The notes below the pieces were generated by a model, which worked only from the letters and a program-made list of their open reading frames with translations, had not been told where the DNA came from and did not search any database. Of a stretch of 64,000 nt of DNA, positions 1,053-40,430 are shown in pieces. Source of the stretch: Octopus sinensis (taxonomy: Eukaryota); assembly GCF_006345805.1 (NCBI RefSeq), contig NC_042997.1, positions 198,896,001 through 198,960,000 on the forward strand, written 5' to 3'. Every line of letters starts with the position of its first letter. Positions within the stretch are counted from its first letter, which is position 1. The position numbers and the translations under genes were made by a program.

Positions 1053-1397
1053 GGCACAGGAGTGACTGTGGGAAGAAGCTTGCTTCCCGACCACATGGCT
1101 CCGGGTTCAGTCCCACTGCGTACCACCTTGGGCAAGTGTCTTCTGCTATAACTTTGGGCCAACCAAAGCCTTGTGAGTGGATTTGGTAGATGGAAACTGA
1201 AAGAAGCCTGTCGTACACACACACACATGTATTTGTGTCTGAGTTTATACCAGCCACCATCGCTTGACATCCGATGTTGTGTTTACGTCCCCGTAACCTA
1301 GTAGTCAGCAAAACAGAGAACTTGGCTGACAATGAATAAGTCCTGATATCGATTTGTTCGACTAAAGGCGGTGTTCCAGCATGGCCGCGGTCAAATG
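1053..1397 (+). mobile_element. tRNA-derived SINE, family A (diverged copy)
   Basis: Head GGCACAGGAGTGACTGTGGG...GGTTCAGTCCC with A/B-box-like motifs. Central CCTTGGGCAAGTGTCTT...GCCTTGTGAGTGGATTTGGTAGA domain is shared with more than 12 other copies in the window. Confidence 0.85.
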
Positions 1398-1764
1398 CAT
1401 TTCCATTCAGTTTGATAACTCTGTTCAATTCTGTGAAATTTTCATTTTGGCTTCCTAAAGTTTTTTTTTTTCAATTATTCTGTTCTACTGTAAAACCAGT
1501 CATTAGCTTCCATTTGTTTCCACCAACTCCTTTTTCATAAGAGACCAAGGAACAAACTACACATATTAACTGCCGAATGTTGGTAATTCAGTTGCAGTTT
1601 TAGGTAATTTTTATTTTTTCACTTATTTATTTATCTTTTGCAATTCTGGAGCCTGTTTTTCTTCCCTTGTTTATTTCTGCCATAGTCATCATTACATATA
1701 TAGAACAATTTAAAACAGAGTTACTTACTTGCAAATAAATGTGTTAACATGTGACATTATTAAC

Positions 1765-2006
1765 CGAGGTTACCGTGGTCTTTTCCGTAGGCTTTTCTTT
1801 CCACGGATAAACCTTATCTGCTTCCCGCTTTACACTTTACATCATGACATTTCTGTGATACACGATCCCTATTGATCGTTTTTTTACCTTTTCTTTTTAC
1901 GATCCCCTTGATCGAAAACCTACCCCACTTTTTTTTCCCCAAAAAGAAAAGCTCTACTTTGTATTTTGTCCCTTCTGTGTTCAGCCCTATGTGGTTAATA
2001 AAGAAA
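1765..2006 (+). mobile_element. Putative LINE 3' UTR remnant whose tail matches the SINE family B tail
   Basis: Ends in TGTCCCTTCTGTGTTCAGCCCTATGTGGTTAATAAAGAAA, similar to the family B tail GTCCCCTCTGTGTTTAGCCCCTTGTGGGTAATAAAGAAA. Upstream sequence is unrelated to the SINE. Confidence 0.45.
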
Positions 2007-2068
2007 CATATATAAACCAAGAGGTGAAAAGGATTAATAAATCCAGGTATATGTCTAGAAAGTACTCA

Positions 2069-2231
2069 GGCGCAGGAGTGGCTGTGTGTTAAGTAGCTTG
2101 TTTACCCACCACATGGTCCCGGGTTCAGTCCCATTGCGTGGCACCTTGGGCAAGTGTCTTCTACTATAGCCTCGGGCCGACCAAGGCCTTGTGAGTGGAT
2201 TTCGTAGACAGAAAACTGAAAGAAGCCCGCC

Positions 2232-2272
<41 letters not shown>

Positions 2273-2489
2273 TGTTTGTGTGTCTGTGTTTGTCCCCCTA
2301 GCATTGCTTGACAACCGATACTGGTGTGTTTATGTCTCCGTTACTTAGCGGTTCGGCAAAAAAAAGACCTATAGAATAAGTACTGGGCTTACAAAAGAAT
2401 AAGTCCCGGGGTCGAGTTGCGCGATTAAAGGCGGTGCTCCAGCATGGCCGCAGTCAGATGACTGAAACAAGTAAAAGAGTAAAAGAGAG
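2069..2489 (+). mobile_element. tRNA-derived SINE, family A, full length
   Basis: GGCGCAGGAGTGGCTGTGTG head, central domain (Meta-SINE-like by recollection), internal (TA)n, GAGTAAAA tandem tail. Confidence 0.9.
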
Positions 2490-2639
2490 TGGTTAAACGA
2501 GCTGGGTTAACTATAACAAACCATCAGCTCACAAGAAATGCAAACAGAATTAACATCCGGAGTAATTCCTCATGTATGACAAGTAGATCCAAAGAGTGTC
2601 AAGAAATTCGGTGTATATGATGACATGAAAAATGGACGG

Positions 2640-3023
2640 GGTACTTTTTGGTTATCTTACCCCCATTTAAAAAACTGCCATTAAAAAACTGGGTTATTTC
2701 CCCACTAAAAAATCGAGTTGATGTGATGACAAGAGGTTGGATTGAAAGAGTTAGATCCTTTTAATTCAACTCTTTTGATTCAACACATTATTGACGTTTA
2801 GTCTCCTCAATAGGCGTGCTATGATTTGTTATAAAAATGTTATCAGATTCAAAAAGATGTTTAATTTTTCTCAGTTTTTTACGTGTTTATTAATTTTTCA
2901 TTTTTTATTTATTGAGGATTAAACATTTTTTTTTTAGGGAGATGACCAAAAGTATCAATATTTCTCGTAAAATGGGGGATATAACCCGATTTTCTAATGG
3001 GAGTGAGATAACCAAAAGGTACC
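2640..3023. mobile_element. MITE with ~28-bp TIRs, Merlin-like
   Basis: Left GGTACTTTTTGGTTATCTTACCCCCATT and right AATGGGAGTGAGATAACCAAAAGGTACC are inverted, with 3 mismatches. Flanks TGGACGG(G)/AGGACGGG form an imperfect 7-8 bp TSD. GGTAC terminus fits the Merlin GGNRM pattern. Confidence 0.75.
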
Positions 3024-3107
3024 AGGACGGGAAAAAAAATCACATCTTTGAATGAAGATTATACCATACATTTAAAGATACGATTTACTCCATTTTTGTT
3101 CGTCTTG

Positions 3108-3144
<37 letters not shown>

Positions 3145-3174
3145 CATACGTGTGTGTGTGTGTATATATATATA

Positions 3175-3585
3175 AGAATATTTTGCGTAATGGGATAAAA
3201 AACCAAGGCTGTGTAGGTATGAGAGCATTTGTAGATAGGTCTTACAGCTGTTTCTAGGATATTTATTAATAATATCCCTTAAACGAAGACGGTGTGAGAG
3301 GATAGTTAAGTCATAGTTTAGATGTGATACAAAATAGAGCGTGAGGTGGAGGAAAGAAAATAGATGCAAGATGTGTATGGATATTGAAGGTGTAAATCCA
3401 TTTTATATGCAGAAGGTCCAACAGAGTTTAAAATGGGTCCTTCCAAATATAGAGTTTATACACCATGTAAGATTTCCTTATTAGTGAGATCTAGCAGTTT
3501 TTAAATTTGGTCATTCCAAGTAGAGAATTTATATATAGTGTTGCAAAGTCAAAGGCTTATTTATTTAAAGTAACCTAAATATACA
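3175..3585 (-). mobile_element. Degenerate Penelope-like element remnant with a decayed hammerhead-like motif
   Basis: Minus strand reads GTCTT-CGTTTAA-GGGATAT...ATATCCT-A-GAAACAGCTGTA-AGAC (about 3239-3290). Stems and the GAAA half are intact, but CUGANGA is lost. Abuts (TA)n. Confidence 0.4.
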
Positions 3586-3590
3586 ATATA

Positions 3591-3986
3591 CTAGCAGTAT
3601 CGCCCGGCGTTGCTCGGGTTTGTAAGGGAAATAACTATATAAGCATTTTTAGAGAGTTATAGCCAAAAAATAGCAAAAAATGCATTAAAAATGGGAAAGA
3701 AATGATGGTAATTTTTTTTTTAAATCGTTGACTCATCGTAGACATTTTTAGAGAGTTACTTCCCTTATATAATAGCGAAAAAAATGCATTAAAATGGGAA
3801 AAAATGATGGTAAATTTTATTTTAAATCGTAGACTCATCGTAGACGTGCGCTAATACCCAGAAGGGCTCGATATGAATCACGACTATAAGATACCCGGTT
3901 TTGGTTAAACTGCACCGCAAAATGTGGGAGTAGTTAGGAATCTAAATCGTAGGAGACACACACAACTTGACTTTTATATATAAAGA
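3591..3986 (-). mobile_element. Non-autonomous Helitron, family H1
   Basis: On the minus strand: 5' TCTTTATATATAAAA, 3' hairpin CCCGAGCAACGCCGGG followed by CTAG. Inserted between A and T with no TSD. Confidence 0.85.
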
Positions 3987-5272: not shown

Positions 5273-5734
5273 AAATAGCCACGGATTGTGGATTTGCCAT
5301 TTTAGCAATCTCAGCAATTTAACATTTTAATGTAGTATCTATCAAACATTTGTGTTATAAGCGCAATGACACTGATTGCAATTTTAATTACTCCAGTGTT
5401 TTTTGTTGTTGTTTTTTTTTTACACTCAAGCAATTGCCTTGACAAAGAATCTAAAATGATGTTGTTGTTTTTTTTTTTTAAGCGAAATCAGACACGTGAG
5501 AGAAATGCCGCTAGGTTTAATATTCCAATTTTCTTGAGTATTTGTAACTATTTAAATGAAATAGAAATAATTAATGGACGTGTCAGTTTAAAAAGAAAAA
5601 TCCGTTTGATTTCGGCGGTGATGAAATAGTATAGTTTACCTAATCGCACACTGGAATTCACATAACACTCTATGAAACAATTTGCTGGTGAACTCTGGGA
5701 TTTTCTTTTCATATTGTAATGCAGTTACTAAAAG

Positions 5735-6231
5735 TAAAATAAATGCGCCCTGTTAAAGCCTAGCCAGGCTCATGGGCCCGGTTTTCTGGTTTCAATGGCG
5801 TATGTGTTCCCCAGCTGGATGGGATGCCAGTCCATCGCAGTGTTACTCATTTTTGCCAGCTGAGTGGACTGGAGCAACAGGAAATGAAGTGTTTTGCTCA
5901 AGAACACAGCGCGTCGCCCGGTCCTGAAATCGAAACCACAATCTTACGATCATGATGCTGACAACCTAACCCCTAAGCCACTTGCCTCCACTGCGCCCTT
6001 TTAAATCCTAGCCAGGCTCATGGGCCCGGTTTCTATGGCGTATGTCTTCCCCAGCTGGATGGGATGCCAGTCCATCGTAGTGTTACTCATTTTTGCCAGC
6101 TGAGTGGACTGGAGCAACAGGAAATGAAGTGTTTTGCTCAAGAACACAACGCGTCGCCCGGTCCAGGAATCGAAACCACAATCTTACGGTCATGATGCTG
6201 ACACCCTAACCACTAAGCCACGCGCCTCCAC
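5735..6231 (-). mobile_element. Head-to-tail dimer of a tRNA-derived SINE (family C; CORE-like plus V-domain-like)
   Basis: Two ~240-bp near-identical units. Minus-strand head GGAGGCGCGTGGCTTAGTGGTTAGGG...GGTTTCGATTCC, with GTGTTCTTGAGCAAAACACTT and GATGGACTGGCATCCCATCCAG motifs. TSD AATGCAG(T/C)TACT flanks the whole dimer. Confidence 0.88.
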
Positions 6232-6522: not shown

Positions 6523-6730
6523 ATGACCGCGTGTGTATCGTTGGCGATTTTCTTTCTCCGTCTTCCCTTCCTTGGACTTTTCCTTTTTCTTTGTTTCTGA
6601 CGAAGAGCTGCGCTCGAAACGTTAAATCCTCCTCCTTCTTTCTTTCCTTTCCTGAACGTCCAATAACACTATACTTGTTCCACGTCCTCGCGTTGTTGTG
6701 TTTTATGTTTGTTCATGTTTGGATTAACTA
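6523..6730 (+). mobile_element. Short Penelope-like (pLTR-type) element with a minimal hammerhead motif
   Basis: Homologous to 19394-19584. Contains CTGACGA-A-GAGC-TGC-GCTC-GAAACGTT (6597-6623). Flanked by microsatellites. Confidence 0.65.
6594..6626 (+). ncRNA. Minimal type I hammerhead ribozyme motif
   Basis: CUGACGA core, GAGC/GCUC stem II, GAAA, palindromic ACGU stem III. Stem I is weak (3 A-U pairs). Confidence 0.55.
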
Positions 6731-19393: not shown

Positions 19394-19584
19394 TGACCGC
19401 GTGTGTATCGTTGGTGATTTTTTTCCTTCCGTCTTCCCTTCCTTGGATCTTTCCTTTTCCTATCTTTCTGACGAAGAGCTCAGCTCGAAACGTTAAATCC
19501 TCCTTCTTTCTTTTCCTGAGCGTCCAATAATACTATACTTGTTCCACGTCCTCGCGTTGTTGTGTTTTCATGTTTGGATTAACT
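19394..19584 (+). mobile_element. Short Penelope-like element with a minimal hammerhead motif
   Basis: Near-identical to 6523-6730. CTGACGA-A-GAGC-TCA-GCTC-GAAACGTT at 19468-19494. Ends at (TA)n. Confidence 0.65.
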
Positions 19585-36240: not shown

Positions 36241-36900
36241 CATGTCGCCATAAAACGACGAACCACTGCCCGTCTGAAGATGTATCGAAAGTGGAGAATT
36301 GCAACACGTCTTACTCAGCTGGCGCCGAAGTAAAACAAGCTCCGGACCGGTTGCAGTGCATTCATCTCAACAACGACCAGCCTTGTGGGGCAGGGGTTCG
36401 CATCTGATTCCAACTATACAGTTTACTGCTTGATGTAGACGTATTTTTACTGTGAAGCTTGAGTGCTGTTGTGGATATACAATCGGCCAGCCTGAGCTAA
36501 TTTTAGGAGCCAACACTTCGTTCGAGTGTTCGAATCCATACTAGCGACTTAACTGTATCAGCACTATCGACAAGAGGCTGTTTAATTTGGGGCTTCTGTC
36601 AGATGAGTTACAAGTAAAATTTTTCTTCTCTGAAGTATTCAAAATTGATAAAGGAAAAAAAATAAATACTAGAAACATGCCGTCTGTGAAAAATTCGATT
36701 TTCTCTCTCAGCTTGAAACGAAAGTAACAAGATGATGTCAACATCCGTCCGCTAATTCTTGTTGCAGAAAGATAAAAAGAAATAATTTGATAAGTGAGTG
36801 TAAAAGGACGTTTGGCAATTACTGCCTATCGTTTGCGAAAACGAAATTGGCCTTAAGGCGAGGGAGATGGGGCAACGACTGAGTGGACTTCATACTTCAC
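36241..36900 (+). promoter_or_regulatory. CpG-rich putative promoter / non-coding first exon
   Basis: Non-repetitive sequence, visibly richer in GC and CpG than its flanks. Candidate donor AA|GTGAGT at 36794 and acceptor TTTCCATTTCAG at 37371. CpG decay in repeats increases to the right. Strand is inferred. Confidence 0.4.
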
Positions 36901-38081
36901 ATTATCTGATTCAGTGCCTCATGTTTCCGAGTTTAATCCCATCACTGTCAACATTTCTGTTAAAAAAAGTTCTATAACTGCAAAGGAAACAAAATTTGTA
37001 AAAAGAAAATGAAAGGAAAAAAAAACATACATACAACAAGAATTTCCGATTAAATCTCTTTTTTTCTTTTTTCAAGATTCTTTTTTTTTTAATTTTTTAT
37101 TTGCCTGTGTAGTGTTTTGTTTTAGTCATCTCGATTTAAAGAGAAAAACAACTGCACTGATTGAAAAACCAGTCGGTTGTCATGAATTTCTGCATTAAGA
37201 AGGAACAAGCATCAAGTGAGGTTTTGCGAAAATTGTGCAAACACGACCTGACCACAAAGACTTTTTTAAATAATACAAATTCAACAATACCGTTTTATTT
37301 CTAGTTTTTGCAAAACAAAACAAGATATCTAGTCTTAAGACATCGATAAATTATTATTATTTCCATTTCAGATCCTTTTGATCAACTACAAACATTTTCA
37401 TTCCGGATTTAACACGAAGCCGTTAGTGTGTAAAATAACTTGCGCAACTTGCAACGTCGAGAGATACTCTTATTTATTTAACAATTCTAAGGGAAATAAT
37501 TGGCTTTACTGAGCTGAGGACTCGGCTCAATTGTGTAACCTGGGTGAGGTTATTGACACCGTTTGTGTAACTGAGGAGCGAACGAGCATTAATGGGGTGA
37601 TTGCATGTTTGTTTACACTAATTATCATCGTTGCAATACATCATAACTTCGAAATTATCTGTAGCCAAGCCAGAATCCAGTGAGCCACGATGTCTGTAGA
37701 ATTTTTCCATTTAACAATGATTGAAGTGATTAGTCCGGTACCGTCAGACATTTCTGAGATAATCAAATTGCACAACAACATGCTGCAATCAGTATTGTTG
37801 AACAACAATCGAACAGAAGTTTTCCCCGTGTCCTTGTTTTAAATTACCTAATCAATGAATGTTGTAACTGAATCTTTCATAGTTCATTCTAATAGCTTAA
37901 AAATGGACGAGAATACTGGAGAAATCAAGAAAGTTGGATAGTTATGGCTTAAATGCTGGTTGGACAATTAAACTTATTGATTCAGTATAATGATGCTGCC
38001 TTAAAAGGAGTCTAACAATAAAGTATTAAACTATATATATATAACAATAAAGTATTAAACTATATATATATATATATATAT

Positions 38082-38418
38082 ATTCTACATTGAGAGAAGA
38101 AAGAGATGGACGCTTCAATTCTATGCTGTTGCCGCATTATGTCGTACGCGAATGAGAGGATTTGCATCCCCAACCAAGAATTTTTGATGTAACACATGTC
38201 CTTGTGGAAGTTGTTGTGCGCGGCTGAAGAAGGCCACAGACATACATTATGCATTGTTATAAATCTGTCTAATAAAGGCCCGAAACATATGTACCGCTGA
38301 ATCCTTGGCATCATGTTTTTATTTTGATCATTTTACTCCACCACCTACACCACCAAACGATATATACAGGTGCTTATAATTATCAAGTACTCACCCCGAA
38401 TTTCTGTACTCAACTCAC
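38082..38418 (+). mobile_element. Short Penelope-like/retrozyme-like element in (TA)n carrying a hammerhead
   Basis: About 340 bp of unique sequence bounded by TA tracts, with a hammerhead inside. Confidence 0.55.
38220..38297 (+). ncRNA. Type I hammerhead ribozyme (predicted GUA cleavage after 38293)
   Basis: GCGG-CTGAAGA-A-GGCC...(AGACA/TGTCT)...GGCC-C-GAAA-CATATG-TA-CCGC. Stem I GCGG/CCGC, full core, stem II GGCC/GGCC, palindromic ACATATGT stem III. Confidence 0.75.
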
Positions 38419-38439
38419 TATATATATATATATGTATAT

Positions 38440-38690
38440 TTAAAGGACAAAACCACTAGGTGGTCGGCTGTATGCTAGAAGTAGATCACCTACGATCAAA
38501 CTACAAAGAAAAGAATGTTCTCTAGAGGAAATTCAGCGGACACCAGAACCATAGGCGGGTAAGACCGATGAAAATTATATAAAAAAAAACAGAATTACTC
38601 ACAGACTGGCGGTTTCGTCTATTAACAAATGAATCACTTATATAATCCAATTTTCCGTAGACTCGTCAGTGCGATCGTTCCACAGGTAAT
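38440..38690 (-). mobile_element. Second short Penelope-like/retrozyme-like element carrying a hammerhead
   Basis: About 250 bp of unique sequence between TA tracts, unrelated in sequence to the neighbouring element. Confidence 0.5.
38599..38674 (-). ncRNA. Type I hammerhead ribozyme (predicted GUC cleavage between 38604 and 38603)
   Basis: Minus strand TCGCA-CTGACGA-GTCTA-[36 nt]-TAGAC-GAAAC-CGCCA-GTC-TGTGA. Canonical core, 5-bp stem I (one G-U), 5-bp stem II, 2-bp stem III. Confidence 0.82.
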
Positions 38691-38717
38691 GTGATCACGG
38701 TGATATATATATATATA

Positions 38718-39020
38718 TCACCGTGACCGACCAGGTTATCAGATGTTGCTACACATCACTGGTCACAATGCGCTTCGAATTGTTTTAGCCTTCAAATGAC
38801 GCCACCCCGCTGGCTAAGCGAGCAGGCCAACAGAAGAAAGTGTGAGAGAAAGTCGTGACGAAAGAGTACAGCAGGTATCGCCACCACCCCTTGCCGGAGC
38901 CTTGTGGAGCTTTAGGTGTTTTCGCTCAATAAACACTCACAATGCCCTGTCTGAGAATCAAAACCGCGATCTTATGACCGCGAGTCTGCTGACCTAACCA
39001 CTGGGCCACTGCACCTCCAC
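38718..39020 (-). mobile_element. SINE family C variant with a different 3' tail
   Basis: Head and body match the 11621 copy. The 3' ~110 bp differ and end in TCACGGTGA(TA)n. Confidence 0.85.
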
Positions 39021-40021: not shown

Positions 40022-40430
40022 ACTCTTCTTCTTCTTCTTTCATTTCTTCTTTCATTTCTTTTTCTTTCACTTCTTCTTCTTCTTTCACTTCTTCTTTCAT
40101 TGCTTCTTCTTTCACTTCTTCTTCTTTCACTTCTTCCTTCACTTCTTTTTTCACTTCTTTTTCACTTCATCTTCTTTCACTTCTTCTTCTACTTCTTTCA
40201 CTTCTTCTTCTTCTTTCACTTCTTCTTCTTCTTCCTCTTCACTTCTTCTTTCACTTCTTCACTTCTTCTTCTTTCACTTCTTCTTCTTCTTCTTTCACTT
40301 CTTCTTCTTTCACTTCTTCTTTCACTTCTTCTTCTTTCACTTCTTCTTCTTCTTCTTCACTTCTTCTTCTTCCTCTTTCACTTCTTCTTCTTCCTCTTCA
40401 CTTCTTCTTCTTCTTTCACTTCTTCTTCTG
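40022..40430. repeat. (CTT)n / (TTCACTTCTTCT)n microsatellite
   Basis: Direct inspection. It produces the spurious poly-S/L/F ORFs. Confidence 0.95.

Follow-up and report, generated by a model that had tools for sequence, protein, structure and literature searches.

The window, a stretch of 64,000 nucleotides of the Octopus sinensis genome (NC_042997.1, positions 198,896,001 to 198,960,000), was scanned for hammerhead cores accompanied by stems I and II, each 4 bp or longer. Three motifs were found, with a mean of 0.055 per window in 200 block-wise dinucleotide shuffles. Two of them, HHR-A and HHR-B, are the full cores of the preliminary description, lie where it had placed them, and face each other from opposite strands (Table 1). 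The third is a minimal hammerhead (CUGACGA, an unpaired A, a 4-bp stem II and GAAACGUU) from a third repeat family with two copies in the window, one at 6597 (+), which the scan returned, and one at 19468 (+). HHR-A and HHR-B both combine CUGANGA, GAAA and NUH with stems I–III in type I order, the exception being the first position of stem II in HHR-A, where A stands opposite C (A.C), and both have the unusually long stem II inserts that had been claimed for them. An Rfam search of the window, the check that had been proposed, matched neither motif to a hammerhead model at the gathering threshold or at E ≤ 10, a miss that is likely owed to the long insert.

Table 1. Features of the locus, in window coordinates.
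Feature	Position	Strand	Detail or basis
Left target of element A	38013–38081	.	29-bp direct duplication of flank plus (TA)n
Element A	38082–38418	+	337 bp, 5'-truncated 3' end (pseudo-LTR) of a 4,769-bp Hydra-clade Penelope-like element; likeness to best-scoring copies, upstream sequence
HHR-A, type I hammerhead	38220–38297	+	Core and stems I, II and III checked by coordinate
HHR-A stem I	38220–23 / 38294–97	+	GCGG / CCGC
HHR-A core	38224–30; 38282–85	+	CUGAAGA; GAAA
HHR-A stem II		+	GGCC/GGCC arms flanking a 41-nt insert
HHR-A base of stem II	38231/38281	+	A.C opposition
HHR-A stem III	38285–92	+	Palindromic ACAUAUGU
HHR-A site	38291–93	+	GUA; predicted cut after 38293
Shared (TA)n tract	38419–38432	.	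14 bp; tail-to-tail meeting point of the A and B 3' ends
Element B	38433–38695	-	5'-truncated copy (about positions 290–555) of a 548-bp non-coding retrozyme-like unit; identity to copies, unit map
HHR-B, type I hammerhead	38599–38674	-	Core and stems I, II and III checked by coordinate
HHR-B stem I		-	UCGCA/UGUGA
HHR-B core	38669–63; 38616–13	-	CUGACGA; GAAA
HHR-B stem II		-	GUCUA/UAGAC flanking a 36-nt insert; predicted extended helix, RUAA cap
HHR-B stem III		-	ACCGCCAGU
HHR-B site	38606–04	-	GUC; predicted cut between 38604 and 38603
HHR-B private changes	38607; 38653	-	Stem III; extended stem II
5' junction of B	38692–38728	.	Inverted SINE-end piece plus (TA)n spacer, small hairpin
SINE	38717–39020	-	High-copy, taken to be tRNA-like; upstream of B, same strand

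Single-sequence folding gave no signal for the two motifs relative to shuffles (z +1.0 and −0.7). The hammerhead fold of HHR-A is the minimum-energy fold in an 82-nt stretch and no longer so in 88 nt. That of HHR-B lies 5.8 kcal/mol above the minimum, compared with 2.1–2.5 for family copies. The bases at its two privately changed positions were found in 0 of 29 other copies and are predicted to weaken the fold; its stem III duplex is predicted at −1.5 rather than −10.2 kcal/mol, so that most of the predicted dimer pairing is lost. A same-strand partner for dimer folding is absent at the locus, and an A-B heterodimer was ruled out by the opposite strands and a value of +0.7 kcal/mol. Because each motif is single on its own strand and B is damaged, cleavage at this locus is predicted to be weak or nil.

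Each motif sits in an element of its own. Elements A and B have no meaningful sequence in common (best word-7 blastn E value 0.35), in agreement with the earlier view of the motifs as unrelated, and the (TA)n borders ascribed to both are present in the sequence. The SINE upstream of B belongs to a family whose 3' end adjoins (TA)n in many copies, and a further repeat beside it completes the pile-up at the locus. Judged by the Pol III box consensus, this presumably tRNA-like SINE has an A box, and its B box is changed relative to 8 of 12 other copies and now contains a T4 run; ARAGORN found no tRNA in it. A promoter scan returned 4 sites (3.8 expected) using bacterial models, which makes it uninformative for the window. 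None of 148 unique-sequence frames of at least 55 aa in the window reached the Pfam cut-off, a length limit that would overlook shorter exons. Coverage of unique DNA is even in runs X1 and X2, which resemble DNA runs. Contigs of the presumed-RNA runs X4 and X10 fall at 36301–37426, a unique stretch without a long frame that is possibly an untranslated or non-coding exon; none was listed as crossing the flank into the elements, and such contigs cannot show strand, ends or absence. No contig bridged the insertion site to reveal an empty allele. The window also holds a 400-bp (CTT)-rich degenerate microsatellite at 40024–40429, with a strong strand skew and no open frame on its purine strand.

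The families of elements A and B

Full-length matches to element A are 97–99% identical (40 scored among 1,886 first-look candidates), the nearest at 99%. The exact-core pattern of HHR-A has 1,275 genome matches (control, 0), and 47 of the 87 instances extracted, some of them from overlapping loci, have an identical HHR-A sequence. Other copies run more than 3 kb further upstream into an endonuclease frame, and three frames of 842 codons were present among 150 scored protein-search matches. One locus (L087) holds a whole unit with a period of 4,769 bp, in which pseudo-LTRs (pLTRs; 703–1039 and 5472–5793) lie on both sides of a frame (1088–3613) of 836 aa from the first Met, with a reverse transcriptase (RT) region followed by a C-terminal GIY-YIG. 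The protein carries RWA at 39, where RWK is expected and where the surroundings match the published RRMRWKA by eye, followed by DKT at 126, YRDD at 357 and CNCRCASEC at 696 (a CxCX5C linker). Its C-terminal part has VIY..YIG at 715–732 with a single Cys in the interval from GIY to YIG, and CQLC at 793 (CxxC) and CIH at 823 (CxH), which flank the catalytic E and N; CCHH is absent. By eye it parallels Hydra-1_Obim motif by motif. Pfam gave no RT or GIY-YIG match for the frame and PDB gave none, while Atlas look-alikes at 0.95–0.98 carry HTH_animal, with GIY-YIG too in some clusters. Together, the motifs, the by-eye match to published Hydra proteins and the Atlas look-alikes identify the frame as a probable RT. 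Since copies extend into this intact RT plus GIY-YIG unit, element A is the truncated end of an autonomous element, not a non-autonomous one.

Mapping of the 3' ends of family A (55 mapped, some loci overlapping) showed that 51 of 55 are followed by TA-rich sequence, and that they form two clusters, 16 ends about 40 nt past the predicted cut and the other 39 some 80 nt beyond that; these two classes recall the "tail" of Penelope-like elements (PLEs) in PMC11167929. Only 1 of 30 ORF-bearing copies has its 5' end at the predicted cut, and this copy itself resembles an internal deletion. Cleavage-defined 5' ends were rejected for family A, as there is no pile-up at the cut; ends away from the cut site agree with the anole element, where uncut RNA is described as the insertion substrate (PMC11167929). 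An insertion bias for (TA)n and inverted 5'-truncated copies are both present in the family. The base of stem II is G-C or A.A in the relatives of A, 7 of which were aligned, and A.C is fixed in the 1,275 HHR-A copies, which are too alike for a covariation test. Further Hydra-like families, with 40–60% protein identity to A, were seen at loci L093, L094 and L204–L206. Their hammerheads have stem II spans of 57–60 nt, and the proteins of L093 and L094 have long asparagine-rich linkers.

Other full-length matches to element B are 87–92% identical (40 scored among 1,549 candidates). When 60 B loci were mapped on one natural unit, a 548-bp period emerged, with a partial copy plus a full unit. The loci often carry an inverted 5' piece and stop either where the unit ends or about 113 nt inside the unit that follows. 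Multi-unit arrays occur at L112 and L201, and the longest Met frames of the arrays are 112 and 67 aa, flanks included. A degenerate B core pattern, into which the window copy does not fall, gave 285 matches (control, 0); a second subfamily, about 78% identical, and a related tandem of 504 bp were also found. As circles, B units are predicted to be 64% paired (z −4.7 and −5.8, 25 shuffles). Stem III is self-complementary in five B-type variants, with predicted duplex energies of −6.6 to −14.1 kcal/mol, a feature expected for dimer folding (PMC4209133). Family B thus appears to fit a non-LTR retrozyme as characterized in PMC7229834 and bioRxiv 10.64898/2026.07.22.740005.

The family mapping agrees with the preliminary description in placing Penelope- and retrozyme-type type I hammerheads within retroelements. 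Its view of both as short, non-coding and non-autonomous applies in part: the 548-bp unit of B is non-coding and non-autonomous, A derives from a Hydra-clade element that is autonomous, other copies having intact 836-aa frames, and the pieces in the window are both truncated parts of longer units. The link to PLE ORFs that was to be looked for is seen for A. For B, the search for a partner covered, among the PLE families of the genome, family A and 12 related-ORF loci; no pLTR homology to B was found in family A, and 0 of the 12 loci resemble the B unit. The idea that B is the end of a longer coding element was rejected, as the flanks that copies share run back into the same unit of 548 bp and the extension of 1.4 kb at L050/L060 is duplicated flank. 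Two B copies, at L069 and L070, have duplicated sequence upstream of them with a presumably fucosyltransferase-like frame. Other tandem units of about 490–560 bp, each with its own hammerhead, were seen at L093 (8461–9814), L205 (6977–7469) and L213 (256–1254). The L093 unit and unit B have about 200 bp in common at 67–72% identity, possibly a common promoter or RT-recognition segment.

The long stem II arm

The covariation of stems to which the preliminary description had looked is present in the B group. It was scored on a structure hand-drawn from these B-type sequences, with 77 of 85 distinct motifs aligned and 8 truncated, deleted or duplicate rows left out. On this structure, 92.6% of cells are paired, compared with 30–39% in slid controls. 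There are 115 both-sided changes versus 44±5 when shuffled (0 of 500), a count to be read with few independent events behind it, relatedness inflating this and the other measures above the shuffles; two of the five measures, which count pairs or pair types, were not above shuffles (291 and 308 of 500). The second stem II pair (23–67) occurs as C-G, G-C and U-A. Run without a guiding structure, RNAalifold returned stems I and III of the B group along with the distal hairpin and 3 bp that extend stem I, but not the proximal stem II. The long insert is thus modelled as an extended helix with internal loops and a GUAA or AUAA cap in most rows, and its pairing appears to be kept across subfamilies.

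Among the fetched loci, 43 other distinct motifs were found, a few of them misfiled B variants; 25 have a stem II span of at least 30 nt and 30 of the 43 have perfect stem III palindromes, with 0 matches in 810 kb of reversed control. A search of all 2.72 Gb of the genome for the core, a span of 40–70 nt and an ACAHDUGU stem III gave 18,339 matches (reversed control, 56), a count that rests on core, span and stem III, with stems I and II unscored. By comparison, published Hydra hammerheads have loops of 3–10 nt (PMC8557442 supplement), the minimal-hammerhead descriptor limits loop 2 to 3–10 nt (PMC4209133), and two spike-moss PLE-X hammerheads with inserts of about 30–35 nt provide a precedent (PMC8557442). 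Our literature search, subscription journals and some supplements aside, found no description of long-arm hammerheads in cephalopods; a squid genome paper counts 235 hammerhead 1 ribozymes among the ncRNAs it matched. An octopus Naiad "half core" was also considered as a long-arm type I motif and was not supported: by eye, in the supplement of PMC8557442, GAAAC at the 3' end of Naiad_Ovul precedes a hairpin-like stretch and CUGAUGA, which is type II order, with no standard NUH.

An extended stem II spread across many families and thousands of copies would constitute a new variant of the hammerhead. At about 1 per 150 kb and outside short-loop descriptors, such motifs suggest that hammerhead counts in genomes of this kind may be far too low. 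A bolder reading, which we put forward tentatively and consider rather doubtful as a whole, is that an extended stem II with internal loops has replaced the short loop 2 in dozens of Penelope-type families of this lineage, that the arm is a docking module conditioning cleavage, and that Hydra-clade enzymes mobilize B as an active circRNA retrozyme. If this were true, more than 18,000 hammerheads would be invisible to standard descriptors, and the arm would dock stem I or the element's own RT.

How the two motifs came to face each other

Facing pairs recur elsewhere in the genome. At another locus (L200 3938–4810; C1:117.29 Mb), a 3.5-kb A copy meets a copy of B2 across (TA)n with cores 504 bp apart; this pair has no flank in common with the window, and the uniform expectation is 0.004 on its stretch. 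Another family's hammerhead faces B within 700 bp at 2 of 60 B loci, and at 1 of 26 A loci another family's motif faces A at 1.6 kb. From density only, about 19 facing pairs within 600 bp would be expected genome-wide for one pattern class, the set of 18,339. Among 100 listed A cores on C1, A-A pairs were back to back in 25 cases, in tandem in 2 and facing in 0; the back-to-back pairs arise from 5' inversions.

We therefore favor, with a probability of roughly 85%, the reading that both motifs were carried in as passengers by truncated copies of two unrelated families, which likely inserted successively into the same (TA)n, the facing arrangement being a likely by-product of shared targeting. 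By itself the arrangement is ordinary and likely incidental. A Hydra-type endonuclease would nick (TA)n, reverse transcription would start near the RNA 3' end and halt early, and every insertion would leave a new (TA)n target. The inverted SINE-end piece at the 5' junction of B, together with 8 private sites in B (two at paired positions) versus 2 in A, suggests that the SINE likely inserted first, then B, the older of the two, and then A. In tandem transcripts of these families, two neighboring hammerheads would pair through the palindromic stem III and release unit-length RNA; that of B would likely circularize and serve in trans as template for a Penelope-type RT. Lunse et al. are said to have described PLE hammerheads cleaving as dimers in 2017.

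A different question is whether the motifs work as ribozymes at all. We consider it unlikely that they do not, and that the conserved fold is instead an RT-binding or packaging signal with marginal cleavage, even though HHR-A has a fixed A.C where G10.1-C11.1 is usual (all 1,275 copies), metazoan PLE hammerheads cleave poorly in vitro (PMC4209133), and the anole hammerhead cleaves only with protein and has no RNA-seq ends at its site (PMC11167929). Many unrelated families retain the core letters, an NUH site and a palindromic stem III, as the perfect palindromes counted above illustrate. A mismatch at the base of stem II also occurs in published Hydra hammerheads (PMC8557442), and an axolotl hammerhead with such a mismatch cleaves (PMC7229834). 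This alternative concerns function only and is compatible with the history of successive insertion. Weighing against the favored account as a whole, cleavage of the anole element is described as dispensable for insertion in vitro (PMC11167929). Young intact Hydra-clade elements with a non-coding partner that has natural stem III variants could serve as tests of PLE hammerhead function, including whether cleavage needs dimers or an element protein.

That B is carried by the machinery of family A, and that both inserted together through template switching or co-packaging, is in our view very unlikely. Both families target (TA)n and carry inverted 5' pieces, and on C1, among the 24 B-type cores listed, 2 have an A core no more than 5 kb away, in addition to the window pair. 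However, a 3'-end-to-3'-end junction on opposite strands across the TA tract would not readily come from one round of reverse transcription, the two elements differ in age by their private sites, A and B share no sequence, and B faces other families too. The regulatory reading of the preliminary description, co-transcriptional cutting of transcripts on either strand, found no support, and we hold it to be extremely improbable that the pair was co-opted as a two-way cleavage device ending or processing host transcripts from a nearby promoter: both cores are complete, HHR-A reaches its minimum-energy fold in 82 nt, and the SINE that precedes B on its strand has Pol III-like boxes, yet A is a very recent copy (99% to the nearest), B has its private changes and raised fold energy, the 148 frames gave nothing at the Pfam cut-off, the B box of the SINE is altered, and the arrangement of A and B2 converging on (TA)n recurs at another locus.

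Comparison with known systems

Family A resembles the Hydra clade of C-terminal EN+ PLEs, which includes Hydra-1_Obim, as set out in Craig et al. 2021 (PMC8557442): the two have in common DKT, the CxCX5C linker, the lack of CCHH, the CxxC and CxH of the endonuclease and the (TA)n target. The hammerhead of A is likewise similar to those of the clade, being a 3' type I motif with a stem III of 3–4 bp and, as is often seen there, a mismatch at the base of stem II. By that source, A differs in its unit of 4.8 kb, whereas the Hydra clade is generally under 3 kb, in RWA rather than RWK, in its approximately 1.85 kb of 3' non-coding sequence, and in a 41-nt insert as opposed to the 3–10 nt loops of the Hydra table; HHR-A is not the hammerhead sequence of Hydra-1_Obim.

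Family B resembles the animal non-LTR retrozymes (Cervera and de la Pena 2020, PMC7229834; bioRxiv 10.64898/2026.07.22.740005) in being non-coding, with one type I hammerhead, tandem copies, low G+C, a strong predicted circular fold and proposed PLE mobilization. It differs in length, 548 bp as against 170–400 nt (PMC7229834), although the preprint gives 51–972 bp, and in its mostly dispersed partial tandems, PLE-type inversions and tails, and extended stem II. Both motifs resemble the minimal, small-palindrome PLE hammerheads of Cervera and de la Pena 2014 (PMC4209133), which lie in pLTRs and have a palindromic stem III for which dimer folding was proposed, but they fall outside its descriptor, with its loop 2 of 3–10 nt. 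Finally, opposite-strand hammerhead pairs 100–700 bp apart are known from Schistosoma in that paper, whereas the pair in the window is made up of two families.
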